Part shown: positions 9,390 to 32,538 of the stretch, piece by piece | How positions within the stretch are numbered: position 1 is the stretch's first letter | How the letters are laid out: every line of letters begins with the position of its first letter | DNA from: Thermoplasmata archaeon | GTDB lineage: Archaea > Thermoplasmatota > E2 > DHVEG-1 | NCBI GenBank assembly: GCA_020054495.1 | Contig: JAHWGK010000009.1 | Location: 5,314 to 69,313 of the forward strand | Length of the DNA stretch: 64,000 nt | Reading direction: 5' to 3' | Notes under the pieces: generated by a model | Databases searched by the model: none | What the model was told of the DNA's origin: nothing | What the model saw: the letters and a program-made list of their open reading frames with translations, nothing else | Made by a program: the position numbers and the translations under genes

Positions 9390-9449
9390 AAATAGAAAAA
9401 AATTAAAAAAAAGGTAAAGAGGAAGTTTTTAGGTTTCTCTCTTTTGTTT
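9390..9449. terminator. Bidirectional oligo-T/oligo-A tract between the convergent PAS gene and arlB
   Basis: aaatagaaaaaaattaaaaaaaagg...ttttaggtttctctcttttgttttta gives T-runs on both strands. Archaeal terminators are oligo-T tracts. Confidence 0.35.
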
Positions 9450-14271: not shown

Positions 14272-15396
14272 TTATTCCTTAGCAATTAATTTTTCCGCAG
14301 CTGACTTTAATTCATTATACTCATCTAGTAACTGCTCAAAGCGCTCCTTCATATCATCGTATTTTTGCTTATAAGGGTTTTCAATTTCTTCAGCAAGTAT
14401 GACATTGCTATCATCTTTAGTATTTTTAGGTTTACTTGAATAATGACCTCTGTTTTCATTATCCATTTGAACAATGATTTGCTTACCTAGTCTTCCAAAT
14501 GAAGTGGCATCTAATCGTTTTAGAAGATCTTTGCATTTTTTAATATTCACATCAAGAACATTTACCTTGCGCCGATGATTTGTTATATGCTCTGAAAATT
14601 CTCTTCTGTCAATATCTTTTATCAACCTTTTCTCTGTTAAATCCATTAAACTATCTTTCAATGCTAGACGTTGTTTTTCTAAAACTTTCAGACGTTGATG
14701 AAGAAGTTCTTTAAGAGAAACAGCCTCGTCAATATAATGTACCATTTGGTCATCATGTTTTACAAATATATTATATAACTCTTCATTAGAAATTGTATCA
14801 TCGTCAATGAGTGTTGTAAGTTCAGGGGATACTTTCTCCTTGAACTCTAATCGCTCTAAGGTTTTCAATGAATTTATATACCAACTTTGAATAAATATCA
14901 ATCCTTCTTTGTGTTCATCGAATTGATCAACTGGAAAAGACATTACAGAGTCAGATTTTTCATCTTTTATTTTAAATCCAGTAAGATTTTTCTCCCCGTC
15001 ATAAATCATATCAAAAACTGTTCCAAGTTTTTCACCAGTGTCTTCAAGAAATACTGGTTTGTCTTTCATATCCTTTGATTTAATTATTTTCTTCTTTTTG
15101 TGGCTAGGCCACTGTTTTTTCTCGTCTTCTTCGAGGATATCTAGTTCTTTTTCATTTGATATTTTATCTTGAAAAACCTCTGTTTTTTCTTTATTTAGTT
15201 CAATTTCAACATTTTCCTTTTCTATTTCTCTGTTTTTTTGTTTATCTTTTTTGTATTTTAAAGAATTTTCTTTTTGAGCATTATCTTTCTTTTTATATCT
15301 TATACCGATTTTTTTTCTCTTTTTTATTTTTCTTTCTAAACTTGTAACACCATTTTTGGCAATCTGAATTTTTTTGTCTTTTTTAAAAAGAGCCAT
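14272..15396 (-). CDS. Lys-rich N-terminus + PRC-barrel-like domain + coiled-coil protein
   Basis: KPVFLEDTGEKLGTVFDMIYDGEKNLTGFKIKDEKSDSVMSFPVDQF fits the PRC-barrel pattern. C-terminal coiled coil. Strong SD GAGGTGG before the ATG. Confidence 0.5.
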   Translation of the reverse strand: MALFKKDKKIQIAKNGVTSLERKIKKRKKIGIRYKKKDNAQKENSLKYKKDKQKNREIEKENVEIELNKEKTEVFQDKISNEKELDILEEDEKKQWPSHKKKKIIKSKDMKDKPVFLEDTGEKLGTVFDMIYDGEKNLTGFKIKDEKSDSVMSFPVDQFDEHKEGLIFIQSWYINSLKTLERLEFKEKVSPELTTLIDDDTISNEELYNIFVKHDDQMVHYIDEAVSLKELLHQRLKVLEKQRLALKDSLMDLTEKRLIKDIDRREFSEHITNHRRKVNVLDVNIKKCKDLLKRLDATSFGRLGKQIIVQMDNENRGHYSSKPKNTKDDSNVILAEEIENPYKQKYDDMKERFEQLLDEYNELKSAAEKLIAKE

Positions 15397-15417: not shown

Positions 15418-17028
15418 TTACAGGTCACAGCTTCCCTCCAATGAAAGTAATGGGTCTTTCCGTTCTTTAACATTTTGGATAAGATGTACTATACTCCAGG
15501 ATACTAGTGATAATGGTATCAGAAGTACGGCTAGTAATAGTAGATAAATTCCAATTGTTCCTAATGTGAGAGCCATTAATTCCATCATTGTTTGTTCTTT
15601 TGATATTATTACTAGGTTTGATTGAATTATCATATGGGCTATTGCAAGTACCATTGTTGTTAGAACTGCTAATACAATTTTGCTTCTAATTTTGCAACTT
15701 ATAAGATAGGCCAATAGCCCAGCTATTAAAACAGCAATAAACATTGCTAGTATTTGGTCTTCTAGAAAGTATAATATTGGTATGATTACTAATGCGGCTA
15801 GGATGGGTTTTCCTGTTGATGAGAAAACAGTTTCTTTGAGTTTTATATCTGAAAAATTTATTCGCGCAATCCATATGAAATTCCTCCCAATTGTACGTTT
15901 TGTGTTTTCTTTTGCTCTGGTAACCCTTTTAACTACATTTTCTTTAAGGATAAGTCGAGATGGATGTCGCCATGATCTATCTACAGCCCAGATGACTATT
16001 TTGTCTCCTACAAAAGTGATTGATATTAACAAAAACAAAGTGATTGTTGTTAAAATTATTGCTGATAAGAGATCAAGGATGAATACTGTAGCTTCAGCAT
16101 TCAAATTTATTAAATTTTGAATGAAATCGTCAGGAAATATAATCCAAAAAGGTGAAGAATACAACATTATTTCTCCAACATATGATCCATTTTGTGTCTC
16201 ATTAGAAGCTACTGCTTTTACACTAGTTGATTTTGTTTCTCCCCTTTCAAGCTCAAAGGTTTGTCTTGGAATATATTCACTTATTTCTCCACGACCAAAA
16301 ATTATTCCCTTTATATGCATTGTCCCTGGGTTTATCAACGGTATATCTTTTGGAAAAGATTCTCTACCCGGTTTAATTCTTCCAAATTCTATGGCACCTC
16401 CAGGGTCATCAGCATTGATACCTACTGATGCAGAAATAGAATCATTTGCAAAAGTGTGAATAACAGTTAAAAAAATAATGTATGCTATTAGAAAAGTAAT
16501 TATTGTTCTCTTTAGTTTTAGTGGTTTGCGACCAAATATATTCAAATGGATTTTTTCTTTAATTGTTTTTGCTTTTTCAGGTAAAATAAATATTAATATT
16601 ACTAGTATAACAATCGAAATTGTTAATGGTGCAAAAATACCAGCGTAGCTTATTGGATCCTTTGATGATGTAGGTTGCGATAACGAGTCTAAACCTTGAT
16701 TTATCCAAAGTCCAAGAAAACCAATAAATGGTATTTTTAATGGCTGTTGACCTATAGATAATATCTTCCCCATTAGATTCTCTTCTCTTATGTATGGTTC
16801 TGGTATGTGTGGTCCTGCTTGGTCTGTCCATTTGTTATTATCTCCTTTTGTTTCTAAACGAATTTCGCCTTTGCTATTTGTTATTATATTTGATACTCTG
16901 TGAACAAGGATTTTTTCATCTGGCCAGTGTACGTAGCTTTTAAAAACCACTACGTCTCCAGTTTTGATATCTTCTATTTTTGTGGGCGTCCAAGCAACTA
17001 CATCTCCTTCTATAAGAGTTGGGCTCAT
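15418..17028 (-). CDS. Sec11/SipW-type (S26B) signal peptidase I fused to a large polytopic membrane + beta-domain region. The called ORF is N-terminally truncated; the true start is upstream, at about 17157-17169.
   Basis: MSPTL (SM-x-PT box), ILVHRV (catalytic His box), ETKGDNN (GDNN box), then at least 8 hydrophobic helices. The in-frame upstream sequence encodes the expected TM anchor and the catalytic Ser (see finding). Confidence 0.8.
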   Translation of the reverse strand: MSPTLIEGDVVAWTPTKIEDIKTGDVVVFKSYVHWPDEKILVHRVSNIITNSKGEIRLETKGDNNKWTDQAGPHIPEPYIREENLMGKILSIGQQPLKIPFIGFLGLWINQGLDSLSQPTSSKDPISYAGIFAPLTISIVILVILIFILPEKAKTIKEKIHLNIFGRKPLKLKRTIITFLIAYIIFLTVIHTFANDSISASVGINADDPGGAIEFGRIKPGRESFPKDIPLINPGTMHIKGIIFGRGEISEYIPRQTFELERGETKSTSVKAVASNETQNGSYVGEIMLYSSPFWIIFPDDFIQNLINLNAEATVFILDLLSAIILTTITLFLLISITFVGDKIVIWAVDRSWRHPSRLILKENVVKRVTRAKENTKRTIGRNFIWIARINFSDIKLKETVFSSTGKPILAALVIIPILYFLEDQILAMFIAVLIAGLLAYLISCKIRSKIVLAVLTTMVLAIAHMIIQSNLVIISKEQTMMELMALTLGTIGIYLLLLAVLLIPLSLVSWSIVHLIQNVKERKDPLLSLEGSCDL

Positions 17029-17278
17029 TGAATCAGAGGTGACTAAATCTATTGGGAATGGCGTTCCAGCTGATACTGATAGGAAACGAGCTATGATTAA
17101 AATTAAGGTTGCAAGGAAAATAACATTACCAATAATGGATGTTATCCTGAATTTAATGTATCATCCCATCCCAATTGCATACGTGTATATATTTTTGGAT
17201 ATATTATATTTGTGCTAAAAACAAGTGTTTACAATATTTATAATATAATTGACGAATGTGATTGGGTTATGTTTCTAG

Positions 17279-20200
17279 CTAGGCTTTGTAATGTTCGATG
17301 TAGTACCCTTCTGCAACGAACTCAATTTTATCATAAGTTTTTGGTAATGTAAATTCAAGGTAGTATTCATCTCCCTCTTTCAAAATAAGATAATGATCAT
17401 CTGAATATCTCAGAAGTTGCCTATTTATTAATGATGTAAATGATTCTTCAGTTAATGGCTTTGAGATTGATAATTGAGTTTTAATATTATCTAATTCAAC
17501 TATCTGGCCATCATTTATTCTAAGATAGATGTGATCAAGGTATGTTGTCTCATCAAGCTCCTCAGTGATTTTCAACATCACCTTTCCATCGATTATATCT
17601 ATTTTTCTAGTAATGTCTATAAGCTGTGTGTATTTATTATCAAGTGCTATTGCCCCTGGTATAAAATCTGAAAGTTTTCTGAATTCTTTATCTCTAAATA
17701 AATAAAGGAAAGGCGAAGCTGATGGAGTGTAATTCACTTCCACGTAGACTTGTGTGCAGTTACTATATTGATAGTCGCGTCCTATTAAGGCTACGCCAAC
17801 TTGAAGTTGATCTATTTCAGTCCATGTCCAGTTGGAACTAGTAAATGGGTTTGTATCATGGTTCCAGCTATAGGTTACATAGCTAGTGGTTAAAGTAACA
17901 GACGTATCGCTGTCATAAAAGTCCCTTGCCCCACCATTATACATAGCCGGTTTCATATCATTATCGACTGGTGGACCACCACCGGTGCCATATTTTGTAC
18001 CAACTAGATAAATAGTGACATTATTGATATCGCCAGTTTCAGTGGTATGAGGTTGGAGAATGTAGGTATCATTAATGTAGGTGGCTTGATCGTCTGTGTA
18101 TACAAAATCGGTATCTCCATTGTGTGTTTCCTCATCAACAGATTGCCAATTTGGATTATCCGGCACGCCGAGAGGTCCATTTGCTAGCTGTTCAGATTGC
18201 CCCGTGTTAATCGGTCTTATTGTTAGAGTTTGTGGCGGGGTTGTTGTAAAGTTATATGTTCTATTTGCCCATGCTGTGTAATCTGTGACATTTACACTCC
18301 ACCAGTATTTTGTATTTGGGCTGTCCATACTTTCATTTGTTTGACTGTATGTTCCGTTGTAAACAGAATCATTATATCCAATTAATCCCCAAGATCCTGT
18401 CACATTAGTATAAAAGGTAACATTCATGGCGTCAATGTTAGTATCGTTTACTTGTATTGACAAAGTTGGAGTTATACCTTGGCCAGTTGCACCATCACTT
18501 GGACTTGGGCTGCTTTGTGTTGGTGCAACGTTTTGTATTTCTTGACCACCAAATGCTATGAATAAACTTGGGGAACTAGTTGTGTTATATGTTGCGTTTA
18601 TCCAGCTGGTATTACGAGCGATTTTTGAGATTCTAACTTCATCAATCTTTCCATCCCAATATTCTGGATCAGCTGAATTGTTTTCTCTACCAATCATCAA
18701 AGGAACTGATTGAGTTGATGGATTTGATGCGACTGCATCAGCTGTTCCTTCTGAGCTACTATTAACATATAATCTTAGATTACTTCCATCATTTATTCCC
18801 ACCACATAGTGCCAGCCAGTTGATGTCAAGTCAGTATTACCATTAGCGGTCTCAGTTCCGCCACCTGAGTTACTAAATGTTACAACAGCAATACCATCAG
18901 TTGTATTTGAATATAAGGCAAAGTTTCTATCTGTGGAATCATCGATTTGTTTATTGATCATAAAATGATGGTCAGATTTATCATCTAATGTTACCCAGCA
19001 TTCAAGACTGAATGAACTAAGATTAAAATCAGAATGATGATTTTCATCCATATAATCTGCATCTCCTTCTAAATCATCAGCTCCATTTGCAATACCAGTT
19101 GCGTCAGTATCCGAATCACTGTCTGTATCATGGAGTGTTAAATCATGGTCGTTAGATGTTGAATCGTTATGGTTTTGCCCATTAGATGGTGCATCATGAA
19201 GATGCCATATTCCAACAAAATTACTATCCCATACATTTGTTACGTCCTCTCTATTTGCAGTACATACTGTGTTTCCATAATACATATATATTGTTGTATT
19301 TGTTGAAGAAGATAGACTTGTAACATTAACCCAAGCAACAAGTTCACCGTTACTATTATCATATTTTTCAATTTCATGTGCCAACTTATCTGTATATGAG
19401 CCATTCATCCAATCAACAGTAGTAATCATAAACATGATATCATTACCACTTGAATGCGCGTTATTTTTAAGATCGTCATCGGTAGTACTAATTAGAACCG
19501 GAAAGTTAGTAAGATCTTCATCAATCATTGAAGCATTTATCCATATTTGCTTTCGATAACTCCATGTTTTTAAAATCCCTTCTTGACTACCAAATGTAGC
19601 AAAAGTTGTTGGGCTATTTGTATTATAATAAGTTGTATTTATCCAGTCAGCACTTCTTGCTGTATTAGAAATACGAAGTTCATCCAAAGTTCCTGTAAGG
19701 TACTCTCCAATTTTTAAGTCGTTATTATTTGTATTAATGCTACTTGAGTAACTAGTGTCATCTACTTCGTCTCCATCTCTATATAACCTTATTGTTGAAC
19801 CATCATAAGTTAACACAACATAATGCCAATTAGTATCAATTGAACAAGTTGCACTATTGCTATTAATATAACCATATACGGTAGTGCCTCCAGGATTCAT
19901 TTCAAGTGAATAAGCATTTTGTCCTTTACTTATAATTTCTTTATTTGCTCCAATCGTTGTAAAATGATATGTTGCATTAGTCCACTCACCCTGACTGTCA
20001 TTTACACAAACTTTCCAATAATAAGTTTGACTGTTTGAAGAAAAGTTTGAGTCAACATCTGCTTGGGAATAGGTTCCATTGGTTTTTGAATAATTTGTAC
20101 CAACTAAATTTGGACAACTACTATCTGCTCCCCAGTACCATGTGATATCCATCTGTAATGAATCACTGTGATTTACTTGAATTTCAAGAGTCGGATTCAA

Positions 20201-23200
20201 ACTTACTCCGGTACTTTCATTTGAAGGATTTTCATTTGATAATATGGGTTTGTTGTTTGTAGTATTGCTACCACTTTCATTATCATCTGACCACTCATCA
20301 AGTGTTGGGTTATATGTCCAAGTTGCATAGCTCCATGCTTGATAATAATAAATGACTCCGGCTGTTAACCCGGCGTCTTCATAATTAGAGCCGCTGTCAT
20401 TATAAACTTCTATTCCTTCACCTCTATCCCAACTTGTTACCCCACTTTGATTTCTTTCAATATAAGTTGTATTAGCACCATCTCCCGCGGTCCATGTTAG
20501 ATAAATAACTGATGAGCTATTTGTTTGGATATTTAATGTTCCTGATACTGTAGCATTTGGTTTTGTTAGAAATGTTAGTTCAATCCCAGTTGAAAAACCT
20601 CCACTATTGTTTGCCCATGCTGTAAAATAATATAGTTGTCCTGGTATTAAATCACTTGAATTATTACTAAATGCATTTCCTTCTGAGACTGTTCCAACAG
20701 TAATATTTGTCGAAGTTCCACCAGAAGTTGTATCTAACCAAAAACCACAAGTTGTAGTTCCATTTCCATCATCATTTAATAATCCATTTAGAGTTGCATT
20801 TGTTTCTTCAACGCCTGTTGCAGCATTTGTAGTAACAGTTGGAGAACCCGCACCTGTAGTAAAATGATATGTTGCATTTGTCCAATTGCACCCGTCTGTT
20901 AAATTTATACTCCAATGGTAAGTAACTCCAGGATCACTAAAGTTTGTATTTGTTTGTGTTATGTTTGTTCCTGTGCTTATACTAGTATTGGTTGCGAAGT
21001 CTACCCATGTCTCTGAGCTGTTGCTTCTCCATGTCGCTGTCATGGTGTCGCTGTCTGCATCTGTACATATTACATACAAAGCAGGCGTTGTAGTTATACC
21101 TGTGCTTTGGTTTACTGGTGATTCTCCGCTTTGTGTTGGTTCACTGTTTGTAGTGAAGTGATATGTCTCATTACTCCAACCTCCTTCTCCATCTGTTAAA
21201 TTTATACTCCAATAGTATGTAGTTCCTGGGTTGCTGAAGTTGCTGTTAGTTTGAGTAATATTTGTATTATTTGCTATACTATTATTTGAGGCAAAATCAA
21301 CCCAAGCTCCTGAGATGTTGCTCCTCCACGTTGCATTCATTGTGTCTCCGTCATTATCTGTACAAATTACGTAAAGTGCGGGTATTGGACATATATTCAA
21401 ACTCTCATTAGTTGGACTCTCGCCTGATTGTGTGGGTTCATTATTTGTAGTTTGGTTTGTACTACTATTTTCATCTGACCATTGATGAATAGTAGGATTA
21501 TAAGTCCAATTAGCAAAGGTCCAAGCTTGATAGTAGTATCGTAATCCTTCTAAGAGACCTGTATCTTCATAGTTCGTCCCACTACCATTATAAATTTCAG
21601 TACCATCCCCTCTAGCCCAAACAGTAACGTCACTTGCATTCCGTTCAATGTATGTGGTGTTATATCCTGTTCCACCAGTCCATGATAGATAAATCATTGA
21701 TGTGCTATTTCTCTGCGAAATAAATGAACTAGGTACGTTTGGTTTTGTAAGAAATGTCATCTCTGAGCCATTAGCAAATCCTTCGCTATTGCTGGCCCAA
21801 GCTTGATAGAAATAGATCTGACCTTGGCTAAGGCTCTCATTATTATTACCAAACTCTGTATTGTTTGCTATTGTTCCCACACTAAAGTTTTCGGAATAAG
21901 TTCCTGAGCTTGTTCCAAATCTAAATCCACAGGTTGTATCGGCACTACCATTGTTTTGTAAGTATCCTCTGAGTGTTGCATTTGTTTCCTCTATTCCTAT
22001 AGATGCATTAGTTGTGACCGTAGGTGCTGATACTGTTGTTGGATTATAGTAACAACTTGCATCATCACTGCTTGGAGCAAGCTCCATATTACTTGAGTTA
22101 TCCTCTGCTATGCTGTAAAATTCATAATATCCAGTTCCGTTTGGAAAATTGAAATTCCAGGAAGCTGCAACCCATGGATCTGTATCGGGATTGCTTGCAT
22201 CGTTCCATTTAGTCCACCCCTCTCCTGCGAAATGTTGTGAGAATGCTACAATACATACTCCTCTATCATCATGCATTGCATTACCGCCATCTTCTCCATT
22301 TGCCTTTAATAAATAATTATAAGTGTTTGTGTTTAAAACACTATTGTTATCAAACATTATTGCGTATCCTATATCTGGACCCTCGGAATTTCCCTTATTG
22401 TTCCAACTACATATTCGATTTGCGCCAGTTTGTTTGCATGCAGTTGATGCAGCTCCAGTCTTGACAGAAAGAGCTTGGTATTGTATTGCAGCGGCCCATG
22501 GGTCATTAGGGGGATCACCTGAACCGTCATGTTCATATCTACCCCCCCAAAATGTTATAACGGTGCCATTAAACGTTGGATTATAACCACTTGCATTTCC
22601 TAGTTCAGTCCATGTACTATGAGGAATTTCGGTATTTGCAGAAGTTTGGTTATATGTGTAATTAAAAAATGCACTAAGATTCAATATAAAAATTTGACTG
22701 GATTGTTTATCATGAACATTATCCCCACAGAAATCTAATCCATACGTTTTTGAAGGCACAGCTGGTGATTCTAAAACATAAATTAAACTAAGCACCGATT
22801 CGTCATTTGAAGATTCTCCATCTCTTTCGACTGCTGTTTTTTCAGTTTTTACCGCGCCTGTATCTTCCGTTAATCTCATCATTAACAAATCATCACTAAC
22901 AGCATCGATTTCACATCTACTTGTACCCATAACAAGATAGTCACTACTCCCATCTGGAGTGAATGTAATGCTGGCACCAGATGTACTCCAGCTATCATCC
23001 ATATCATCCGATACTGAAGTATCATCATCATACCAATAATCAGAATTTTCAGTTAAATTGTCAAGTGGAATAGCCATTAATGATATTTCATCGAAATAAA
23101 CATTCAACACTGAGAGTGCATCTTGTGTTGCGTATAAGTCAATATCTTCTTCACTAACAGCAGTCCAATTGATAAATGTAAAATAAACCCAAGCTGAATT

Positions 23201-26200: not shown

Positions 26201-28675
26201 AACATCAGATTCGTAACCAATACCGCTAGCGCCTATTACTTTTGCAACAATTAGTTCTGCATCAGGTGCAATACTCTTTATAATGGAAGCAACTTTAGTA
26301 CCATGCCCATATTCATCATCTGGAATATCATCATCATGAACAAAATCATAGCCATAGCTATAATTAACAATTGAAGAATCAACGCCTGTATCAATAATGC
26401 ATATTTTTTTACCCACTCCTGTAACATTAAACTCATTGATAGCCTCAGTGTATCTTATAATGGGTAAGCTATGTTCTAATAAAGTTGTATAGTTTTTATC
26501 AGGAAAAATTTCTGAAATGTCATTGTTAAACTTAATCGTATCATAAACTGATTTATTTATTACTCCTGAAATATATCCTTTTGATGATATCTCTGATTTT
26601 TTAATAAAACCGTCCTCTTCTAGTTCGGATACTTTTTTTGTAAAATTTTTCTTATCTTTATATTTAATAATTACTTGAACATTATCAATTTGCGATATTT
26701 CTTCAGCCACTTCCGACGGTAAACTTAATGGTTTATTAAAATAAATTTCATCTTTCCGCCAATTTTCAAAATACGATTGGTTATTAACTTTATTTTTCAA
26801 ATTTATAAATAAATTATCTAATACTGATTTGTTAACAAGGCCACTAAAATTTTTATAAGTATATCCATTTTCATTATCAGATATTAGAAACAAAGATGGA
26901 TATGAATCAATACCATAATTAGTAAATAATGAAGGATTTTGATTTTTATTTATATAAATTATTTCCAATTCGTTACTATATTTTTTATTTACATCAATCA
27001 ATATATCATCTTGAATTTTACAAATATCGCAATTGTCAGTAAAAAAATACAACAATACTGATTTTCCCAGATTTAAATTATTTTCAATATCTAACTCAAT
27101 ATTTCTTACATCTGAAATTGAAATTATGGAAAAACCTTCATTCTTGCATACTGTAATATTATCAATAAGAATTTTAATATCTGAAAATCCATAACTTGAA
27201 AGAAATTCAAAAGCTCTTATTTTATTAAGGTAGTTTTCGCCATAAATGATTACATTATTATCCTTATAATCTTCAAGCCTACTTAATAAACAAGGGCTAC
27301 AATTAAAATCTAATAATGGAATTGAAATCGAATCATAAATGTAATTAGAACTGTAATCCTCTTCACTTCTAATATCAAAAATTATTGCATTTTTGTTTGA
27401 ATTTACCATATCTTTGGCCTGTTGAGCAGTGATACCATATGGATTTTCATCTAAATCTTTGCTTTTTAGAGCATCTATTATAAACTCCAATATTGAAAAA
27501 GGATTGTTCCAGTTTGTTGAACCATATGAATTGTTCCAATGAGTAGTACTTTCATAGTCATATGTCCCATCAGAGGATATAACAAGATAACTGATTTTTC
27601 CATCAGAATAATGATTTTGTAACACTGTTTCAAAATCTATTTTAATTGTCTCTAAATCTTTAGTAATGAATGGCTTTGAATAAGCAATATAATCAAGGTT
27701 TTGTATTTTTTCGGGAAGTTTGATACGTATATTTTCAATTCTTTTTTCAATAGCTGAATTTGGTTTATTTTTATGATAGAATCCTTCAAATATAGATTCA
27801 AGATTTACAGATATATCCTTAATTTTTACTCCAAAAGAAAATAAAGTAATAAAGGTCAATTCCGTCTCTTTTTTTACAGAAATAGTTCTTTCAGCTGAAA
27901 ATTTATTTCCAGGAATAATTACTCGTTTTTCTTCTCTTTTATCAACAATTTTAATAGAAGTATCATCCTCAATTGTTTTCAATGGAGGGTCCTTTGCCCA
28001 CCCTTCAAGTGTAATACTATTTGTAATATTTAGACTGCTTGCATCATTAACAGTTATATTGTCGCTTCCATCAAAATCATATCCTCCATCTATTTTACTT
28101 GAAGTATTAGCTGTTGCGCCATTGTTAGTTCCATCGTTATCGTTTGATGTAGAATCAAATATTGAAGTTTGGTTCAAATGTTGAACCATTTTAAAGTTAG
28201 AATCCCATGTTTCAGAAATATTTTGTTGATTAGTGCAAGTTGGATTTCCATAATACATATATAAAATTGTATCTAAGGTTGATGAAAGACTTGAAACCTT
28301 TACCCATGCAGTGAGTTCACCCGTGCTACTATTATATTCTTCAATTTCGTGCTTGTATTGCGTTGTGTTGTAATGGTCTACAAATGCTATGTCACCACCA
28401 TCAGATTGTGCATTTGTAGCGAGATCAACATCTGCACTTTCGTAAATTAAAACCGGGAAATTTGTCTGATCAGAACCTACCTTAGTATGATCAATTGTAA
28501 TCTTCTTGCAATAAGACCAATTACAATTCCACCAGTCTGCACCTGATGAAACACTGAAAGAGTAGCCTGGTTTCGTTGTCATATATTGAGTTCCATATAA
28601 AAGAGTAGAGTTTATCCCACCAAATATGATAAGAACAACACATGCAGCAGCGATAAAAGCTAGTTTCTTTCTCAT
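17279..28675 (-). CDS. Giant 3,798-aa secreted/anchored multidomain surface protein (DUF2341, split LamG, rhodanese-like, thioredoxin-like, I9-like propeptide + S8 subtilase, beta-rich region, FN3-like modules, second DUF2341-LamG, C-terminal domain)
   Basis: The ORF track starts at 28774, but ATG 28675 has SD GGAGGG 5 nt upstream and opens a signal anchor MRKKLAFIAAACVVLIIFGG. Catalytic triad contexts CIIDTGVD / HGTKVAS / GTSFSAPH. Very dense N-x-S/T sequons. Confidence 0.9.
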   Translation of the reverse strand: MRKKLAFIAAACVVLIIFGGINSTLLYGTQYMTTKPGYSFSVSSGADWWNCNWSYCKKITIDHTKVGSDQTNFPVLIYESADVDLATNAQSDGGDIAFVDHYNTTQYKHEIEEYNSSTGELTAWVKVSSLSSTLDTILYMYYGNPTCTNQQNISETWDSNFKMVQHLNQTSIFDSTSNDNDGTNNGATANTSSKIDGGYDFDGSDNITVNDASSLNITNSITLEGWAKDPPLKTIEDDTSIKIVDKREEKRVIIPGNKFSAERTISVKKETELTFITLFSFGVKIKDISVNLESIFEGFYHKNKPNSAIEKRIENIRIKLPEKIQNLDYIAYSKPFITKDLETIKIDFETVLQNHYSDGKISYLVISSDGTYDYESTTHWNNSYGSTNWNNPFSILEFIIDALKSKDLDENPYGITAQQAKDMVNSNKNAIIFDIRSEEDYSSNYIYDSISIPLLDFNCSPCLLSRLEDYKDNNVIIYGENYLNKIRAFEFLSSYGFSDIKILIDNITVCKNEGFSIISISDVRNIELDIENNLNLGKSVLLYFFTDNCDICKIQDDILIDVNKKYSNELEIIYINKNQNPSLFTNYGIDSYPSLFLISDNENGYTYKNFSGLVNKSVLDNLFINLKNKVNNQSYFENWRKDEIYFNKPLSLPSEVAEEISQIDNVQVIIKYKDKKNFTKKVSELEEDGFIKKSEISSKGYISGVINKSVYDTIKFNNDISEIFPDKNYTTLLEHSLPIIRYTEAINEFNVTGVGKKICIIDTGVDSSIVNYSYGYDFVHDDDIPDDEYGHGTKVASIIKSIAPDAELIVAKVIGASGIGYESDVLEAIEWCIEQNPDVISFSIGSQGGCDGFCDGDFVAEMSNDAVDQGIFVVAAAGNDGDTYLKSPSCGSKVFSVSATGSSDNVASFSNVNPTLDMFAPGVKIKTPTGIGRGTSFSAPHVSAAALLVLEQNDLDPNELSYRLKSTGKPINHIYYDENFSINYPRLDIYNAIINNKTLEPFDYSGWQQGVFTEGKDYYALDTAGYELDCNYDSFVSEYYNGYNYGTCTYMYVDPKHGILGSQQQINRMFIDVSSSGIPSYLTNARIDDADLNVYYYGYSGSSPASRTHNCYIVSAVPSQWVEGARCAATAQGSELDWDNQNSATTYTDGRVLGSTYEYKDWDVTSNFQSRVLQTTTYGWMIRDSSETGSTSYAAKYYSNDYSSGSKTPYVELDYQAAAEYISGAANLFAGKKSTTIITEHIDGGCSGTGCSYVDDCRLRISAGLSSFTLNYNVDTNAFTIYAGSSYVSITGCSVTETAITGGYRLTWQFIPDWDFLADDFDYDVVAWTDDELGYTCGYITYEAGSYTFENDIEVVSLTLSIDDNYEYGGTAGQINDNDFFNGGYPVTATGTVEYQGSSQTFDSSYDDICSGSTEVQLFYDTDEDGTPDDLGSSYKDNTISSGSFSIPAYTPADDKTLETNADWDVAIQGICSGGSDVTAAGIEVDCTRDDEVPTATTNAQCRPDGYEDEGEIDDDTEIYFTWDTSSDGSGSGIDTHFAEIGDATPDEDAGNDGEDTDTGVEGLNTYYVWARDNVYNYGKADNDTITISISYAPTQSGESPTNESTGVSVTPALYVIVSDEDGDTMNATWWSNSSESWVQFAYNNSISPDTNITQTNSNFSSYNTKYYWSVNVSDGEGEWNNETYHFTTVADTTIPTSSIDTISPYEQTSSPLSITATASDSESGLKNVTLYYRYSSDNFTAETDEIGVIYAEQNTEQTVERRSPQALVTLDSGDFIVGDEYLLVASAHARADDDLSDCVAGLRIRHGGSVFTETHEQQSGPSDENSAWVYFTFINWTAVSEEDIDLYATQDALSVLNVYFDEISLMAIPLDNLTENSDYWYDDDTSVSDDMDDSWSTSGASITFTPDGSSDYLVMGTSRCEIDAVSDDLLMMRLTEDTGAVKTEKTAVERDGESSNDESVLSLIYVLESPAVPSKTYGLDFCGDNVHDKQSSQIFILNLSAFFNYTYNQTSANTEIPHSTWTELGNASGYNPTFNGTVITFWGGRYEHDGSGDPPNDPWAAAIQYQALSVKTGAASTACKQTGANRICSWNNKGNSEGPDIGYAIMFDNNSVLNTNTYNYLLKANGEDGGNAMHDDRGVCIVAFSQHFAGEGWTKWNDASNPDTDPWVAASWNFNFPNGTGYYEFYSIAEDNSSNMELAPSSDDASCYYNPTTVSAPTVTTNASIGIEETNATLRGYLQNNGSADTTCGFRFGTSSGTYSENFSVGTIANNTEFGNNNESLSQGQIYFYQAWASNSEGFANGSEMTFLTKPNVPSSFISQRNSTSMIYLSWTGGTGYNTTYIERNASDVTVWARGDGTEIYNGSGTNYEDTGLLEGLRYYYQAWTFANWTYNPTIHQWSDENSSTNQTTNNEPTQSGESPTNESLNICPIPALYVICTDNDGDTMNATWRSNISGAWVDFASNNSIANNTNITQTNSNFSNPGTTYYWSINLTDGEGGWSNETYHFTTNSEPTQSGESPVNQSTGITTTPALYVICTDADSDTMTATWRSNSSETWVDFATNTSISTGTNITQTNTNFSDPGVTYHWSINLTDGCNWTNATYHFTTGAGSPTVTTNAATGVEETNATLNGLLNDDGNGTTTCGFWLDTTSGGTSTNITVGTVSEGNAFSNNSSDLIPGQLYYFTAWANNSGGFSTGIELTFLTKPNATVSGTLNIQTNSSSVIYLTWTAGDGANTTYIERNQSGVTSWDRGEGIEVYNDSGSNYEDAGLTAGVIYYYQAWSYATWTYNPTLDEWSDDNESGSNTTNNKPILSNENPSNESTGVSLNPTLEIQVNHSDSLQMDITWYWGADSSCPNLVGTNYSKTNGTYSQADVDSNFSSNSQTYYWKVCVNDSQGEWTNATYHFTTIGANKEIISKGQNAYSLEMNPGGTTVYGYINSNSATCSIDTNWHYVVLTYDGSTIRLYRDGDEVDDTSYSSSINTNNNDLKIGEYLTGTLDELRISNTARSADWINTTYYNTNSPTTFATFGSQEGILKTWSYRKQIWINASMIDEDLTNFPVLISTTDDDLKNNAHSSGNDIMFMITTVDWMNGSYTDKLAHEIEKYDNSNGELVAWVNVTSLSSSTNTTIYMYYGNTVCTANREDVTNVWDSNFVGIWHLHDAPSNGQNHNDSTSNDHDLTLHDTDSDSDTDATGIANGADDLEGDADYMDENHHSDFNLSSFSLECWVTLDDKSDHHFMINKQIDDSTDRNFALYSNTTDGIAVVTFSNSGGGTETANGNTDLTSTGWHYVVGINDGSNLRLYVNSSSEGTADAVASNPSTQSVPLMIGRENNSADPEYWDGKIDEVRISKIARNTSWINATYNTTSSPSLFIAFGGQEIQNVAPTQSSPSPSDGATGQGITPTLSIQVNDTNIDAMNVTFYTNVTGSWGLIGYNDSVYNGTYSQTNESMDSPNTKYWWSVNVTDYTAWANRTYNFTTTPPQTLTIRPINTGQSEQLANGPLGVPDNPNWQSVDEETHNGDTDFVYTDDQATYINDTYILQPHTTETGDINNVTIYLVGTKYGTGGGPPVDNDMKPAMYNGGARDFYDSDTSVTLTTSYVTYSWNHDTNPFTSSNWTWTEIDQLQVGVALIGRDYQYSNCTQVYVEVNYTPSASPFLYLFRDKEFRKLSDFIPGAIALDNKYTQLIDITRKIDIIDGKVMLKITEELDETTYLDHIYLRINDGQIVELDNIKTQLSISKPLTEESFTSLINRQLLRYSDDHYLILKEGDEYYLEFTLPKTYDKIEFVAEGYYIEHYKA
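18243..23900 (-). repeat. Repeated ~95-aa (E/A)PTQSGESP...YHFTT modules (5 copies) and a duplicated ~290-aa FN3-like pair
   Basis: Module copies at about 23608-23900, 21152-21445, 20856-21150, 19955-20260 and 18243-18532. The PTVTTNA..EETNATL..TTCGF + FLTKPN.. pair occurs at about 21450-22030 and about 20262-20848. Confidence 0.75.
18550..19560 (-). other. Intact second DUF2341 + LamG module of the giant protein
   Basis: WSYRKQIWINASMIDEDLTNFPVLIST...GELVAWVNVTSLSSSTNTTIYMYYGN...WDSNFVGIWHL, then ...FSLECWVTLDD...WHYVVGINDGSNLRLYVNSS...GKIDEVRISKIARNTSWINATYNT. Confidence 0.65.
25740..26720 (-). other. I9-like propeptide (about 26440-26720) + S8 subtilase catalytic domain (about 25740-26425)
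   Basis: VQVIIKYKDKKNFTKKVSELEEDGF... then Asp (IIDTGVD, about 26391), His (HGTKVAS, about 26304), Asn (AAAGNDG), Ser (GTSFSAPHVSAAALL, about 25865). Confidence 0.8.
26800..27080 (-). other. Thioredoxin-like domain with CxxC (CDIC)
   Basis: GKSVLLYFFTDNCDICKIQDDILIDVNKKYSNELEIIYINKNQNPSLFTNYGIDSYPSLFLIS. Confidence 0.6.
27133..27445 (-). other. Rhodanese-homology domain lacking the active-site Cys
   Basis: GITAQQAKDMVNSNKNAIIFDIRSEEDY...NVIIYGENYLNKIRAFEFLSSYGF. The position of the catalytic Cys loop reads YGENYLNK. Confidence 0.55.
28175..28535 (-). other. DUF2341-like domain 1 of the giant protein
   Basis: WWNCNWSYCKKITIDHTKVGSDQTNFPVLIY...GELTAWVKVSSLSSTLDTILYMYYGN...WDSNFKMVQHL. Same pattern as the second copy at about 19210-19560. 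Confidence 0.6.
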
Positions 28676-28676
28676 G

Positions 28677-28850
28677 TTACCCTCCTGAAGAACAATGATT
28701 ATCAATTTTTTTAATCTTGATTTCACCGTTTTTAAGAGGGATGATTTCAACGATATCTCCACGGTTGATATCAAAGGCTTCTACAAGTTGACTAGGAATT
28801 GTTACAACAATACTACTCCCTGATACACGAGTCTTGCGTGTTAGAGGCAT
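28677..28850 (-). CDS. AbrB/SpoVT-type small DNA-binding protein (57 aa), not in the ORF track
   Basis: My translation: MPLTRKTRVSGSSIVVTIPSQLVEAFDINRGDIVEIIPLKNGEIKIKKIDNHCSSGG. This fits the AbrB/MazE swapped-hairpin pattern (S..VtIP..l...l.i..GD.V.i....g.i.i). SD-like AGGATGGG before the ATG. Its TAA stop lies 1 nt before the giant gene ATG. Confidence 0.65.
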   Translation of the reverse strand: MPLTRKTRVSGSSIVVTIPSQLVEAFDINRGDIVEIIPLKNGEIKIKKIDNHCSSGG

Positions 28851-28964
28851 ATGCCCATCCTGTGCTTATGAGCATATATATTGAAATATATATAGTTTGT
28901 GTTTTTTTTGGATATATGTTAACCATTGATTATATATCTCTTTTTTAAAACCATTCTTAGCTTT

Positions 28965-30317
28965 CTAACTAATTCCTAAGTAGGCATCTGTTAATGTATT
29001 TCTTTCAATCGTATTAATTTCGTAAGGCGTAGAGGAAACATATTCTAGTTGATCTAATTTCTGTTTAGAAGCAAGTAAAACACCTTGATAAGAATAAACA
29101 AAAGGGAAAATCTCTTTTAACGAATAATACAATATATCAAGATATCTCTCATTGCTATAATAGCTCCATAATGAAAAAGTTCCATAGTCCGCTAAAGAGT
29201 CACTAATAATATTAAAAGCATCAACGGTATAAAGATTTGAAGAATGGGCAACAGTAGGGTTTTCAATATCTATCAATATTGAATCATAATCTCTATTATT
29301 AGTTCTTAAGTAATGTAACCCATCGTCAATAATCAAATTAACTCTAGGATTTTCTAAAACATCTGTCATAACTCTGTTCGCATTTACGACTTGCTCATTT
29401 ATCTCAACGACCTCCATAGTGGTATTAAACTCTAATGCTTTCTCTAGGGTAAGGCCACATCCTAATCCTATATTTAAAACTTGTAGATTTCCGTGTTCTT
29501 CTAGCGGTTCTAATGCAAAGGCTGCCATCATCCTTTCAGATGTAGATTCAGTCCAATCACAGCAACATTGGGTTCTTCCTTCTATAGACAGACAATTATC
29601 TTTAACTGTAACAAGACCATAAGGGGAGTTAGCATAAAATTGGTACCCTTCTTTAGGCTCGTTATTTAGTGTTTGTGGAGAATCGGTAACCAAACTAGGA
29701 ACACTAAAAGAAAAGACAAGAAAGATACATAAAAAAACTACAGGTAGAATTTTAATTTTTTTTGACAAAATAATAAAGGCAGAAATTATATTTAATATCG
29801 CTCCAAAAATTGTTGCAAATTCCACTCCAAATTGTGGAATTAGTAAAAAACCTGCAACTAGACTCCCAATAATTGCTCCAAAAAGATCAACAGAATAAAC
29901 AAGCCCAATAACATCACGTTTCTCCTTTTTAAACATAGCTCCGGCTAAAGGAAAAATCGCGCCTAAAAATAAGGTAGGAACTAATAATATTGCAAAACTA
30001 GTTAGAAAAGTTCCAAAAGTTGAGAGCTTAGGCAGAATGTCCAATAGATTAGATAAAACAAGTACTGCATAAAGGGCTATCAAAATTTGTAAAACACCAA
30101 ATAATAATTTTTTATCCTTGATCCTGTTTAAAAGATAATAAATTACAAGCGATCCTACACCAAGACCGAATAAAAACACACCCAATACAGTAGCAATAGA
30201 GTAACTGCTTTCCGTGAAATAATAGTATAGCATCTTTGTTGCTACAACTTCATATATAAGTGCCGAAGCAGCACTTAATGCCAATGCAAGCTGTACGCTC
30301 AAATTTATGAATTTCAT
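28965..30317 (-). CDS. Fused polytopic membrane / spermidine-synthase-like (SAM-dependent aminopropyl- or methyltransferase fold) protein
   Basis: N-terminus ALSAASALIYEVVATKMLYYYF...VLGVFLFGLGVGS, typical of fused membrane spermidine-synthase-like proteins. C-terminal VLNIGLGCGLT...VVEINEQVV...IIDDGLHYL...ILIDIENP. Confidence 0.7.
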   Translation of the reverse strand: MKFINLSVQLALALSAASALIYEVVATKMLYYYFTESSYSIATVLGVFLFGLGVGSLVIYYLLNRIKDKKLLFGVLQILIALYAVLVLSNLLDILPKLSTFGTFLTSFAILLVPTLFLGAIFPLAGAMFKKEKRDVIGLVYSVDLFGAIIGSLVAGFLLIPQFGVEFATIFGAILNIISAFIILSKKIKILPVVFLCIFLVFSFSVPSLVTDSPQTLNNEPKEGYQFYANSPYGLVTVKDNCLSIEGRTQCCCDWTESTSERMMAAFALEPLEEHGNLQVLNIGLGCGLTLEKALEFNTTMEVVEINEQVVNANRVMTDVLENPRVNLIIDDGLHYLRTNNRDYDSILIDIENPTVAHSSNLYTVDAFNIISDSLADYGTFSLWSYYSNERYLDILYYSLKEIFPFVYSYQGVLLASKQKLDQLEYVSSTPYEINTIERNTLTDAYLGIS

Positions 30318-30521
30318 CCTTTTAATCCCATGTTGTGTTCATATAAAATTAAAATGCCCCCCTATCTAAAATTACAATGTATAATTTTTTTTTATTCCCT
30401 CCTTTATACAAACAGCCTGTTTGAAATCCTAATAATTTAAGTGTATATAAATTTCTATGTTTGACTAGATTTTATAACATAAATTTAAAAAAGAAAAATC
30501 AAAGATTTTAGTTTATACTTT

Positions 30522-31214
30522 TTATGAATTAGTTGATGCTTTGAAGTGGATAAATATTGTACCAGTTGGTGAACCAGCTGATGCATCACTTTCGATATCT
30601 AGTGATACTTGTATCCAAACAAAATCACTAGTTTCATTAGTGGCATCCCAATCACTCACAGAGTACCTTACATGCGATGTTTCGTCCCATGGGGTTAGTA
30701 TATCTCCACCTCCACTGGCGTTCATATTTGTTGGATCAGCGTCCCCAGCACCAAGTGTCCATACAACATCATCAGCGTCATATAATGCTGCACCGCCCTC
30801 CACAACTTTAATTGGTGTTCCAGCATCTAGACTTACATCTGTATCTCTATCACCATGTAGCCATATATCTATGTATGAAGCATTGACGCCTGATACGTTA
30901 ATATATGTTATGTTAACAGGAAGGACTTCCTCGTTTACAATACCAAAAGTAGCTGTATAGTTTTTTTCAGAATTCGGCATCCAACTTCCTAACTCTATTG
31001 TTGCATATGGTGTAGTAGCGTTGTTGTTAACTCGTAACACTCTTTGATTATCACCTGATGAATTATCAGAACCAATATATCTTATATCAGACTCGCTCGG
31101 GTGAACAATAGAAAATGAATAAGTAACCCTTGTTGTAGCATACTGAGTAGCCATTGTCATACTTAAAACTACGAGCAATACGCCGGTTAGCATTAAGCGC
31201 CTGTCAATTCTCAT
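30522..31214 (-). CDS. Secreted beta-rich protein, paralog A (possible TasA/camelysin-like or DUF1102-like fibre subunit)
   Basis: RR-containing signal anchor MRIDRRLMLTGVLLVVLSMTMA, then TQYATTRVTYSFSI. Further segments are FGIVNEEVLPVNITYINV and a C-terminal GTIFIHFKAST. Confidence 0.4.
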   Translation of the reverse strand: MRIDRRLMLTGVLLVVLSMTMATQYATTRVTYSFSIVHPSESDIRYIGSDNSSGDNQRVLRVNNNATTPYATIELGSWMPNSEKNYTATFGIVNEEVLPVNITYINVSGVNASYIDIWLHGDRDTDVSLDAGTPIKVVEGGAALYDADDVVWTLGAGDADPTNMNASGGGDILTPWDETSHVRYSVSDWDATNETSDFVWIQVSLDIESDASAGSPTGTIFIHFKASTNS

Positions 31215-31281
31215 TTTATCCCATCCTACTCTTTATCCTAATATTCAAAAGAACGAAAAGGTGCTTTAATACGATTATGCG

Positions 31282-31311
31282 CATATGAACATGCAGACAC
31301 ATATACATATG
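31282..31311. promoter_or_regulatory. Pair of CATATG palindromes in the divergent intergenic region (paralog A / wHTH gene)
   Basis: CATATG at 31282-31287 and 31306-31311. The same hexamer is paired upstream of paralog B (32566-32571 within GCATATGC, and 32602-32607). Confidence 0.3.
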
Positions 31312-31379
31312 ATTATTCACAAGGAGAATACCTTATTAAGTGAGGGCAACATTATTTTTTTGGAAAACAAGGCGATGGG

Positions 31380-31718
31380 ATGCAAAACGAGATTGGAATG
31401 GATACTTCTCCAGAGGCTTTAAGACCTCTTGTTGTTCGTTCACTACGTGGAAGTAATGTGAGGAAGAAGATTGCAGAGTATCTTTTTGATATAAAACCTA
31501 GTGGTAGCTATGTTTCTGAGATAGCATATCATGTGGAAACTGCACCTTCTAATGTAATTGGTGCTTTACGTGGGATGGATTCAAGATATAGACCTGATGA
31601 GTCACTTATTAATCTTCATATCGTTGAACAGATAAAGAGCGAGGGTAATACAGATATAAAGTTGTATAGGCTCACAGATTTCGGAAAAGAAATATTAGAG
31701 TCAATAATAACTAGATAA
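31380..31718 (+). CDS. Winged-helix (ArsR/TrmB-like) transcriptional regulator
   Basis: KKIAEYLFDIKPSGSYVSEIAYHVETAPSNVIGALRGM... followed by a wing-like LYRLTDFGKEIL. Confidence 0.6.
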   Translation: MQNEIGMDTSPEALRPLVVRSLRGSNVRKKIAEYLFDIKPSGSYVSEIAYHVETAPSNVIGALRGMDSRYRPDESLINLHIVEQIKSEGNTDIKLYRLTDFGKEILESIITR

Positions 31719-31830
31719 CAAATTGGCTTTTTTCAATCCTTGTAAGGATAAAATAAAAAATAGGTAATAATAGAAAAATTTTAGTCTTTTTTTAAATACA
31801 ATGTAAACTTAAAGTATTTTATTTCTGGTT

Positions 31831-32538
31831 TTATGTCTCTGCTTTAAAGTGAATATAAATTGTACCCGTTGGTGTAGTACCGGATCCTGCGTCACTAGGT
31901 AGCTGTAATGATATTCCTACCCAGACGAAATCACTAGTTTCATTTACAGAGTTATTCGCATTATTATGTGAATACATTATACTTGAGGTACTGTCCCAGG
32001 GTGTAGTTAATTGCGTGCTTCCATCTGCACTCATATCGGTTGAAACTCCATTTCCTGCGGCTAGCGTCCATGCAACATCATCAGCGTCATATAATGCTGT
32101 ACCATCGTCTAATACTTTTACCGAGGCAGCACCATCACCGCCATAATCTGCATCTCGGTCTCCATGCAACCACATAGTCAGGTATGAATCATTAGTCCCT
32201 GATACATTAATATATGTTATGTTTACAGCAAATTGTTCTTCGTTAACAATTCCAAAAGCAGCTGTATAATTTTTATCTGAATTTGGCATCCAATCGCCAA
32301 GCTCCATTGTTACAAATTGTGTTCCAGTGCCGTTATCATTTACCCTTAATACTCTTTTGTTGTCATCGGACGAGTTATCTGATGCAATATATCTTATATC
32401 AGACTCGCTTGGATGGACAATAGCAAATGAATAAGTAACCCTCGTAGTAGCATACTGAGTAGCCATTGTCATACTTAAAACTACGAGCATTACACCTAAT
32501 AATACTAAACGTCTGTCTAATCTCATCCCATTACACAT
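31831..32538 (-). CDS. Secreted beta-rich protein, paralog B (likely start ATG 32526, MRLDRR...)
   Basis: About 70% identical by eye to 30522..31214. Signal anchor, then TQYATTRVTYSFAI. C-terminal GTIYIHFKAET. Confidence 0.4.
   Translation of the reverse strand: MCNGMRLDRRLVLLGVMLVVLSMTMATQYATTRVTYSFAIVHPSESDIRYIASDNSSDDNKRVLRVNDNGTGTQFVTMELGDWMPNSDKNYTAAFGIVNEEQFAVNITYINVSGTNDSYLTMWLHGDRDADYGGDGAASVKVLDDGTALYDADDVAWTLAAGNGVSTDMSADGSTQLTTPWDSTSSIMYSHNNANNSVNETSDFVWVGISLQLPSDAGSGTTPTGTIYIHFKAET

Follow-up and report, generated by a model that had tools for sequence, protein, structure and literature searches.

The DNA analysed is a window of 64,000 nucleotides (nt) of contig JAHWGK010000009.1 from a Thermoplasmata archaeon, with a G+C content of ~33%; all coordinates refer to this window, and genes lie on the minus strand unless stated otherwise. 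Positions 15418-32538 hold a block of genes for a candidate surface fibre. The block comprises two small pilin-like paralogs, A (230 residues, 30522-31214) and B (open reading frame (ORF) of 235 residues, 31831-32538), a giant cargo protein of 3,798 residues (17279-28675), an AbrB/SpoVT-like protein of 57 residues (28677-28850; PF04014, E = 1.5e-9) and a two-domain signal peptidase I of the TafD type (~579 residues, 15418-17157). A gene for an EarA-like winged helix-turn-helix regulator lies between paralogs A and B on the plus strand (31380-31718; PF07381, E = 1.8e-24). The two Pfam matches confirm the AbrB-like ORF and the winged-helix regulator that a preliminary description, made from the letters of the DNA, had seen embedded in the block.

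The giant and both paralogs share the motif TQYxTT[KR]xxYSF, termed the tag, directly after an n-h-c signal peptide. In the giant it reads TQYMTTKPGYSF (28556-28591) or, with the trailing S-V, TQYMTTKPGYSFSV (28550-28591, minus strand), and the predicted cleavage LLYG|T falls directly before it. Paralogs A and B both carry TQYATTRVTYSF (31113-31148 and 32425-32460, respectively); the longer form of the tag in paralog A is TQYATTRVTYSFSI (31107-31148), and the tag of paralog B extends over 32419-32460. The three-protein motif of the preliminary description is therefore present where it had been placed. A six-frame scan of the 64 kb tolerating up to three substitutions revealed no fourth copy, and the tag is missing from the other signal-bearing ORFs of the window, which encode an archaellin, an 880-residue propeller protein and a 405-residue protein. 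A profile of signal peptide plus tag (38 positions) gave 37 matches at E <= 1e-3 among 1.84 billion representative proteins. According to the residues downstream of the tag, 19 of these are of the pilin type (HPSxADIRF), 12 are of the DUF2341-cargo type (WWDCNWSY) and the remaining six are fragments or variants of those classes. A relaxed pattern, run over ~740 kb of related loci and the window, returned solely the pilin and cargo classes, barring one spurious antisense ORF. The tag is specific to these two classes and is no generic signal-peptidase context; the possibility, raised earlier, that it recurs at the N-termini of many secreted proteins finds no support in the window scan, the ~740 kb of loci or the search of 1.84 billion proteins.

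Profile-profile alignment of the pilin and cargo families joins the signal peptide and tag only (35 columns, E = 1.6e-4), the downstream domains being unrelated. Within the pilin family the tag is nearly invariant: V-L-S-M-T-M-A-T-Q-Y-A-T-T shows little or no variation among 40 members, above the conservation of the protein body, and A22, Q24, Y25 and A26 are invariant in the alignment of the paralog A family. Downstream of the signal peptide, cargo orthologues on more than 30 contigs keep T-[QE]-Y-x5-6-[YF]-x-[YF]-x-[VIL].

In paralog A the signal peptide (31149-31214) and tag precede a β-sandwich domain, and in paralog B, which probably starts at M5 (32526), they precede a β-rich domain with eight N-glycosylation sequons. 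The paralogs are 67% identical and belong to one family. At the DNA level they are 87% identical over the first 45 codons and 69% identical over the remainder, close to the ~90% previously given for the first stretch, and codons for identical residues are the same in 76% of cases in the first 45 codons vs 56% later. The raised 5' identity arises mainly from conservation at the protein level. Gene conversion was considered as its cause and is a partial contributor at best, since the whole family conserves this region at the protein level. In a related locus, L049 (L-numbers denote related contigs or loci and P-numbers proteins of relatives), the two paralogs (8699-9406 and 10001-10696; P0005 and P0002) are 88% and 93% identical in the last two alignment stretches vs 72% in the middle, the 93% applying to the last 55 aligned residues; on sequence grounds, this C-terminal likeness points to gene conversion between the copies. 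N-glycosylation sequons number eight per pilin, several being invariant, and 121 in the giant; these numbers are consistent with an extracellular location of pilins and giant.

The pilin family comprises at least 660 homologues (clusters at 90% identity) at E <= 1e-3; there was no Pfam domain among the 120 matches listed, and all those listed with a name are termed “hypothetical protein”. In one-genome-per-species data the family is found at 43 loci, almost solely in metagenome-assembled genomes (MAGs) labelled Thermoplasmata, Thermoplasmatales or Thermoplasmatota, and further solo pilin copies are present elsewhere in the same MAGs. Several pilin-type proteins display large C-terminal additions (P0254, P0255, P0257, P0260 and P0261; L014 9833-11263), which consist of ~40-residue repeats in P0254 and P0255, of SBBP β-propeller repeats in P0257 and of the giant's C-terminal domain in P0260. 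The subunit itself can therefore carry cargo.

Sequence comparisons did not connect the paralogs with described fibre subunits. The paralogs matched no Pfam or NCBIfam family in scans of the window proteins, and Peptidase_M73 (PF12389) and DUF1102 gave no match at E <= 10 in the window proteins or in 40 family members, where scattered chance Pfam matches alone were seen. A profile built from the pilin alignment had no match at E <= 10 among all PDB chain sequences, including Saci_0406 and AbpA. The NCBIfam models of TafA and TafE (NF052520, NF052522) did not match the paralogs at E <= 10, the Haloferax mediterranei controls scoring 257 and 227 bits, nor did the TafC model match them, and alignment of the pilin profile with H. 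mediterranei TafA by hhalign gave a probability of 0.2%. The affinity to TasA/camelysin or DUF1102 once proposed for the paralogs thus failed every sequence test.

The AlphaFold model of paralog A, built from a 40-sequence alignment (predicted local distance difference test (pLDDT) of 84.5 and predicted TM-score (pTM) of 0.79), displays a helix at residues 2-24, a low-confidence linker and a β-sandwich, whose first strand (residues 30-37) is the VTYSFSIV part of the tag. Structural similarity search of the PDB with Foldseek revealed the Saci_0406 thread as the top match (PDB code 7pnb_A; E = 4.9e-4, probability 1.0) and the AbpA bundling pilus as the third best (PDB code 7ueg_A; E = 1.7e-3, probability 1.0), and self-complemented or strand-swapped FimA variants were also retrieved. 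On this basis the paralogs would share the fold of the subunits of archaeal donor-strand fibres, as exemplified by the thread and the bundling pilus. This part of the earlier expectation is supported by the model; TasA itself, the fold then named, is not among the structural matches.

A class III signal, as in type IV pilins and archaellins, was ruled out by the n-h-c signal with a small −1 residue after the helix and by the linked signal peptidase I, as opposed to PibD/FlaK. The structural matches are not type IV pilins, and the adjacent archaellum operon has archaellins of its own. A twin arginine within D-R-R-L-V-L-I-G is near-invariant in the pilin signals (residues 5-6; 31197-31202 and 32509-32514) and recalls N-R-R-S-V-L-G-L-I-G of the Taf pilins. 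The hydrophobic core of the pilin signal is strongly Sec-like, the cargo has K-K instead of the twin arginine, and the twin-arginine translocation (Tat) signal model TIGR01409 does not match the paralog pilin. Export of pilins and cargo by the Sec route is likely, if not settled. The model of SipW-cognate signals, TIGR04088, did not appear among the matches of the paralogs, the giant or the Taf control proteins.

The signal peptidase is encoded by a separate gene ~120 nt past the stop codon of the giant. The ORF as listed starts at 17028, at the Met of S-D-S-M-S-P, and omits the first membrane helix and the catalytic serine. Extended to 17157 it encodes 579 residues and matches the archaeal/Sec11-type signal peptidase I model TIGR02228 with 80 bits (cut-off 51.9), a match that appears only after this extension beyond the listed ATG; the Bacillus SipW equivalog model gives 41.5 bits vs a cut-off of 190. 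S43 (codon 17029-17031), H86 and D106/D112 are invariant in 36 homologues and, as read from the sequence, the catalytic triad is intact. The protein comprises a first transmembrane helix (TM1), the Sec11-type catalytic domain, TM2/TM3, a β-sandwich (residues 238-335; 16153-16446), TM4 and an extra four-helix membrane module (~15421-16080). Its profile aligns by hhalign with TafD of H. mediterranei with a probability of 98.1% (E = 6.7e-14, 315 columns), residues 10-359 corresponding to TafD 3-336 collinearly across both domains, and it runs for ~220 C-terminal residues with four further helices beyond the TafD-like part. The reference taf cluster is that of H. mediterranei pHM500, confirmed by the NCBIfam models of TafA, TafE, TafC and TafF. 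The AlphaFold model of the peptidase has an overall pLDDT of 56, with 77-86 in the β-sandwich and low values in the rest; its catalytic core and β-sandwich are usable, and Foldseek retrieved human SEC11 with a probability of 1.0, matches beyond SEC11 not being interpretable. Fusion of TafG onto the peptidase was rejected, as the C-terminus has no DUF5305 match in Pfam and its hhalign comparison with H. mediterranei TafG was empty. With its extra membrane module, the TafD-type peptidase hints at a platform for assembly or anchoring. Of the peptidase as first portrayed, the Sec11-like type and the position in the block, directly downstream of the giant, stand; it does not reach the cut-off of the Bacillus SipW equivalog, and it is fused not to the giant but to a second domain and membrane module of its own, in the manner of TafD.

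The giant comprises, in order, the signal peptide, the tag, a DUF2341 domain, a rhodanese domain, a thioredoxin domain, an S8 subtilase, repeat-rich stretches, two LamG_3 domains, a second DUF2341 domain and a C-terminal domain of 167 residues. The subtilase (25772-26410; PF00082, E = 1.1e-32) has an intact D-H-S triad (DTG 762, HGT 791 and GTSxA 934). The C-terminal domain (17282-17782) matched no Pfam family and recurs with 48-50% identity at the C-termini of P0259, a cargo protein of 773 residues, and of the pilin fusion P0260; it could serve for anchoring or docking. Tag-keeping orthologues of the giant on other contigs range from 379 to 6,453 residues. The smallest cargo homologue (P0278, 379 residues) consists of tag, DUF2341 and LamG_3 and is TafC-like in size and LamG content. 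In L010 (10881-11417) and L011 (10879-11262) the gene located between those of AbrB and the peptidase encodes a cargo of just ~127 residues with one Ig/FN3-like repeat; T-Q-Y is there replaced by [LV]-E-K, and K-S-G-Y-S-Y-S-I is kept. These short proteins may be minimal or decaying cargo. Two near-identical contigs from two other samples (L047, L048) both end inside the giant gene, as expected if internal repeats break short-read assemblies, so that lengths of giants in metagenomes are likely underestimates. A word-indexed search with the first 100 residues of the giant gave two fragments only, and cargo orthologues were taken from the loci and from a profile scan. The same 100 residues were not matched by the TafC model NF052521, and hhalign of the cargo with H. 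mediterranei TafC aligned a weak LamG stretch only (probability 10%).

The order pilin(s)-AbrB-cargo-peptidase is conserved over dozens of Thermoplasmata contigs. With a PRC-barrel gene following the peptidase gene it is seen in the window, L001, L003, L010-L012, L017, L031, L049-L051, L053 and L054, and the contigs that reach far enough continue from the peptidase through a PRC-like gene and a coiled-coil gene to the archaellum operon. Viewed from the peptidase, cargo lies immediately upstream in all four loci looked up in this way, with AbrB and pilin genes also upstream in two (L051 and L053); the PRC gene is next to the peptidase gene in L011, L022, L037, L050, L051, L053 and L054. In L008, L022 and L037 the peptidase gene comes straight after the pilin gene, without cargo or AbrB. 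The co-occurrence in relatives that had been proposed as a check thus identifies pilins, tag-bearing cargo and peptidase as a conserved linked module.

A scan of metagenomes provided 80 relatives of the N-terminal DUF2341 domain, the tag-less class being those whose similarity starts after the tag and which have ordinary signal peptides or carry DUF2341 as an internal domain. An AbrB gene lies upstream of 32 of the 38 tag-bearing and of none of the 37 tag-less genes (Fisher p = 2e-15), and a pilin gene is present in the available upstream DNA of 14/38 vs 0/37 (Fisher p = 3e-5); the two classes differ in relatedness and these p-values overstate independence, yet the pattern is clean. The AbrB-like gene of the window stops 1 nt before the ATG of the giant, and AbrB/SpoVT-like genes abut or overlap the cargo start wherever this junction was read (window, L001, L003, L049, L051 and L053). 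The gene is missing where the cargo gene is missing. L051 has two copies (466-645 and 9597-9776), the second of which precedes the peptidase gene. The AbrB-like protein might have a regulatory role or else partner the cargo on the cytoplasmic side.

The EarA-like gene likewise lies between two pilin genes in the near-identical L047/L048 and in L049, lies at a distance of ~8 kb from the pilin gene in L039 and is missing in L001-L003. It may serve the archaellum, the fibre or both, and its membership of the fibre module is uncertain. Membership is also uncertain for the PRC-barrel protein (374 residues, 14272-15396; PF05239), which is always the next gene past the peptidase. Beyond it lie a coiled-coil/PAS protein of 976 residues (11274-14204) and the archaellum operon (1-11266), with two FlaI-like genes (632-2302 and 2396-4036), a FlaH-like gene, three small FlaF/G-like genes, FlaC/D/E-like genes and archaellins. 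The archaellum operon is always beside the fibre block, with PRC-barrel-like and coiled-coil genes in between (window, L050, L051, L053 and L054); the intervening coiled-coil gene encodes 1,000-2,400 residues, and the window copy also has PAS. A fused gene resembling the major facilitator superfamily (MFS) and spermidine synthase (28965-30317; NF037959) separates paralog A from the AbrB gene. This insertion is restricted to the lineage of the window, which includes L047/L048, and to L031, a short remnant being present in L029, and the gene is probably not core to the fibre system. Past paralog B lie a sodium:solute symporter gene and then the gene of the 880-residue secreted propeller protein.

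Taken together, predicted fold, tag, gene linkage and literature precedent suggest that the block encodes a Sec-dependent, chaperone-free donor-strand surface fibre with two subunits, a dedicated TafD-type peptidase and the giant as a partner comparable to TafC, TapA or AbpB, a reading to which we assign a probability of roughly 0.6. What the analysis shows is a specific tag, linked genes, a pilin-like fold at the level of prediction and a TafD-type peptidase with an intact catalytic triad; cleavage at TMA|TQY and LYG|TQY, polymerisation, insertion of the giant's strand and its place at a fibre end we infer. The mature paralogs, of ~208 residues each, would be the fibre subunits, one probably major and the other minor. 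The TafD-type peptidase would remove the pilin signals after ...TMA, leaving the N-terminus T-Q-Y-A-T-T-[KR]-x-x-Y-x-[FY]-x-[IV], and the alternating aromatic/aliphatic end of this segment would form the β-strand that completes the fold of the neighbouring subunit. The same enzyme would cut the giant after ...LYG and expose the same strand. With no pilin domain behind its strand, the giant would donate to one subunit and never act as acceptor, and it would thus sit at a fibre end, either nucleating or capping the fibre, where its subtilase, thioredoxin, rhodanese and lectin-type modules would be shown outside the cell. The fibre system imagined in the preliminary description accordingly keeps its linked module and specific tag and gains a predicted fold and precedents (TapA, AbpB, Saci_0405 and TafC/TafF), and loses the TasA/camelysin family and the fused peptidase.

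Several observations weigh against a donor-strand fibre. No sequence-level tie to any proven fibre subunit emerged from Pfam, NCBIfam, PDB sequences or the hhalign comparison with TafA, and the structural matches of the paralog model have TM-scores of just 0.37-0.47 and a root mean square deviation of ~7 Å. TafG/DUF5305, which stands beside TafD in all described taf-like clusters, was not found among the block genes or in the neighbour lists of relatives. Among 18-21 locus pairs, covariation between the tags of pilin and cargo is suggestive and falls short of significance: pilin and cargo match at the F/Y position in 15 of 21 pairs (Fisher p = 0.08), which lack phylogenetic independence. The tag could serve solely as a peptidase recognition site, a role that may hold together with strand donation. 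All sequences are metagenomic, and no filament has been observed. Finally, in the peptidase gene none of the codons ATG, GTG and TTG occurs from an in-frame TGA (17161-17163) to the part that encodes the first membrane helix and the catalytic serine. About 42 of the 120 listed peptidase homologues are called from the internal Met (529-537 residues). A conserved TTGGGATGGGATGA lies upstream of the gene and is followed 3-4 nt later by an in-frame ATT/ATA (window, L050, L051 and L011), the corresponding arrangement in L022 being GAGGTGAT, 5 nt and ATT. A start at ATT/ATA appears the most economical reading; read-through of the TGA after ATG-GGA, or a frameshift, is a possible alternative.

By gene content and peptidase type, the closest known systems are the taf-like clusters, for which the comparison set comprised the haloarchaeal Tat-fimbriae and the Sec-type taf-like clusters of Thermococcales/Archaeoglobales, with TafA-G (PMC11821415, PMC12337348). 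In haloarchaea TafD is needed for TafA processing and for fimbriae, the LamG-like TafC has been placed at the tip of the Tat-fimbria, and TafC/TafF are proposed strand-donating partners (PMC11821415). In H. mediterranei the Taf pilins, TafC and the anchor TafF share the post-signal sequence GAF[ST][ST][VI][ED]A. Both the Thermoplasmata block and the taf-like clusters have a dedicated two-domain signal peptidase I, whose second domain is an extracellular, Ig-like β-sandwich between membrane helices, and both group two small pilin genes (TafA/TafE in the latter), a LamG-bearing accessory protein and a small regulator. A post-signal motif is common to pilins and accessory proteins in each, the same principle in another sequence (TQYxTTKxxYxF vs GAF[ST][ST]), and assembly by strand donation is proposed for both. 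In contrast, the Thermoplasmata pilins and cargo fall outside TafA, TafE and DUF1102, the N-terminus of the giant leaves the TafC model unmatched, and the block lacks a TafF-like membrane anchor as well as TafG/DUF5305. Its peptidase has ~220 extra C-terminal residues with four helices, its cargo exceeds TafC in size by a factor of 10-17 and includes an intact subtilase, its AbrB-like gene is coupled to the cargo gene, its export route is likely Sec rather than Tat, though not settled, and it belongs to another lineage. The earlier remark that no comparable system had been described overlooks these haloarchaeal Tat-fimbriae, with their TafD, TafA/TafE, LamG-containing TafC and shared post-signal motif.

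In logic, the block is closest to tapA-sipW-tasA of Bacillus subtilis, where SipW processes TasA and TapA (PMC10151520, PMC9245690) and TapA was shown to nucleate the TasA fibre by giving its N-terminus to TasA (PMC10151520). Fibre subunit, Sec11/SipW-type peptidase and accessory protein are grouped in operon-like fashion in both, and the mature N-terminus of the accessory protein resembles the donor strand of the subunit (PMC9674648, PMC10151520). The Thermoplasmata subunit, however, lies outside Peptidase_M73, the peptidase scores below the SipW cut-off, and TapA has 253 residues as against 3,798 in the giant. In subunit fold, threads and bundling pili are closest. AbpA of Pyrobaculum calidifontis matches the fold of the paralog model and is encoded beside AbpB, a larger signal-peptide protein proposed to be the donor of the first complementing strand and an adhesin (PMC9245690). 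This pair differs in the absence of sequence similarity, in an operon with no dedicated peptidase found and in the size of AbpB (410 residues). In Sulfolobus acidocaldarius, the best structural match, Saci_0406, is a heavily glycosylated thread subunit cleaved by signal peptidase I, and the neighbouring Saci_0405 is the proposed cap, with a donor strand and without an acceptor site (PMC9715654). Here too sequence similarity is absent; no peptidase is linked to the thread cluster, and the proposed cap is pilin-sized and without a Sec signal. No paper describing a Thermoplasmata system of tag, pilin and giant was found in the literature. Set against all these systems, the block is new in its pilin family and TQY tag, in its host range within Thermoplasmata, in the extension of the peptidase and in the coupling of AbrB to cargo, as well as in the enzyme-bearing cargo of thousands of residues and the pilin-cargo fusions.

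An alternative that we consider unlikely, albeit the best of those weighed, holds that the tag is mainly a peptidase substrate signature, on the P' side from T-Q-Y onward, which defines a small secreted regulon; the giant would be released, or retained at the surface alone, and never joined to the paralogs. The motifs shared by TasA and Taf proteins do span the cleavage site and define SipW or TafD substrates. In the present block T-Q-Y, the most invariant part of the tag, sits immediately past the predicted cut, the pilin signal peptide is itself unusually conserved, and the peptidase is always linked to pilin or cargo genes. Yet conservation reaches position +14 in the alternation of a β-strand, which is the first strand of the fold in the pilin model, the residues before the cut differ (SMTMA in pilins vs NSTLLYG in cargo), and the short cargo of L010/L011 has dropped T-Q-Y while retaining the distal part of the tag. 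Moreover, the precedents use one segment as both cleavage context and donor strand, so that a substrate signature is compatible with a donor-strand fibre.

It is improbable that the paralogs remain monomers, glycosylated and exposed at the surface, with an uncleaved helix possibly retaining them in the membrane, and that they serve as lectin-like proteins or as a coat on a cell lacking a surface layer (S-layer) and dock, together with the giant, through the motif to the membrane module of the peptidase. The low TM-scores and the lack of sequence homology to proven fibres would fit such a coat, as would the extra four-helix module, which has no assigned role, and the large propeller or repeat domains of P0254, P0255 and P0257, which are more like those of surface enzymes or adhesins than of rod subunits. 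Against this stand the Foldseek probability of 1.0 to two archaeal donor-strand filaments and to self-complemented FimA, the conservation of a catalytically intact (by sequence) signal peptidase beside the pilin genes and that of a cleavage-type c-region, whose positions −1 and −3 hold small residues in the pilins; two adjacent paralogs also fit major and minor subunits, as in TafA/TafE. Least credible of all is that the likeness of the tags merely reflects shared signal-peptide ancestry, by exon-like shuffling or 5' gene conversion, with no common function: the higher synonymous codon identity over the 5'-most 45 codons of the two paralogs, and the L049 paralogs as a sign that gene conversion occurs in the pilin family, speak for it, but pilins and cargo have retained their tags in species whose proteins otherwise share 40-50% identity, the tag-less DUF2341 relatives are also those without pilin and AbrB neighbours, and what is conserved between the 5' ends of cargo and pilin genes is residues, not DNA.

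The donor-strand fibre admits a bolder version, which we regard as plausible at somewhat less than even odds. A 14-residue N-terminal strand, freed by the TafD-type peptidase, would mount cargo of any size, from a domain of 127 residues to a multi-enzyme protein of 6,453, on a donor-strand pilus and turn it into a plug-in scaffold for extracellular enzyme display. Such a scaffold would combine a pilin family without known relatives and cargo with a predicted active subtilase, thioredoxin and rhodanese, the pilins in addition bearing C-terminal propeller or repeat cargo.

Archaeal donor-strand fibres have been recognised only from 2022, as bundling pili, threads, Tat-fimbriae and cannulae, with occurrences known to date in Thermoproteota, haloarchaea and a few thermophilic euryarchaea. 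If the block indeed encodes such a fibre, these structures extend to uncultured, mostly sediment- and soil-dwelling Thermoplasmata, and a subunit family that current models do not detect is added to them. The locus would then provide the clearest natural case of a short N-terminal strand acting as a portable ticket to a fibre, the same strand heading proteins of ~130 to more than 6,000 residues. Confirmation would reveal a way in which cells without an S-layer display very large enzymes and adhesins, and would supply a defined pair of peptide and groove that could be reused for surface display. Should the plug-in version be true, the archaeal fibre would be an enzyme-display scaffold beyond its role as an adhesive pilus.

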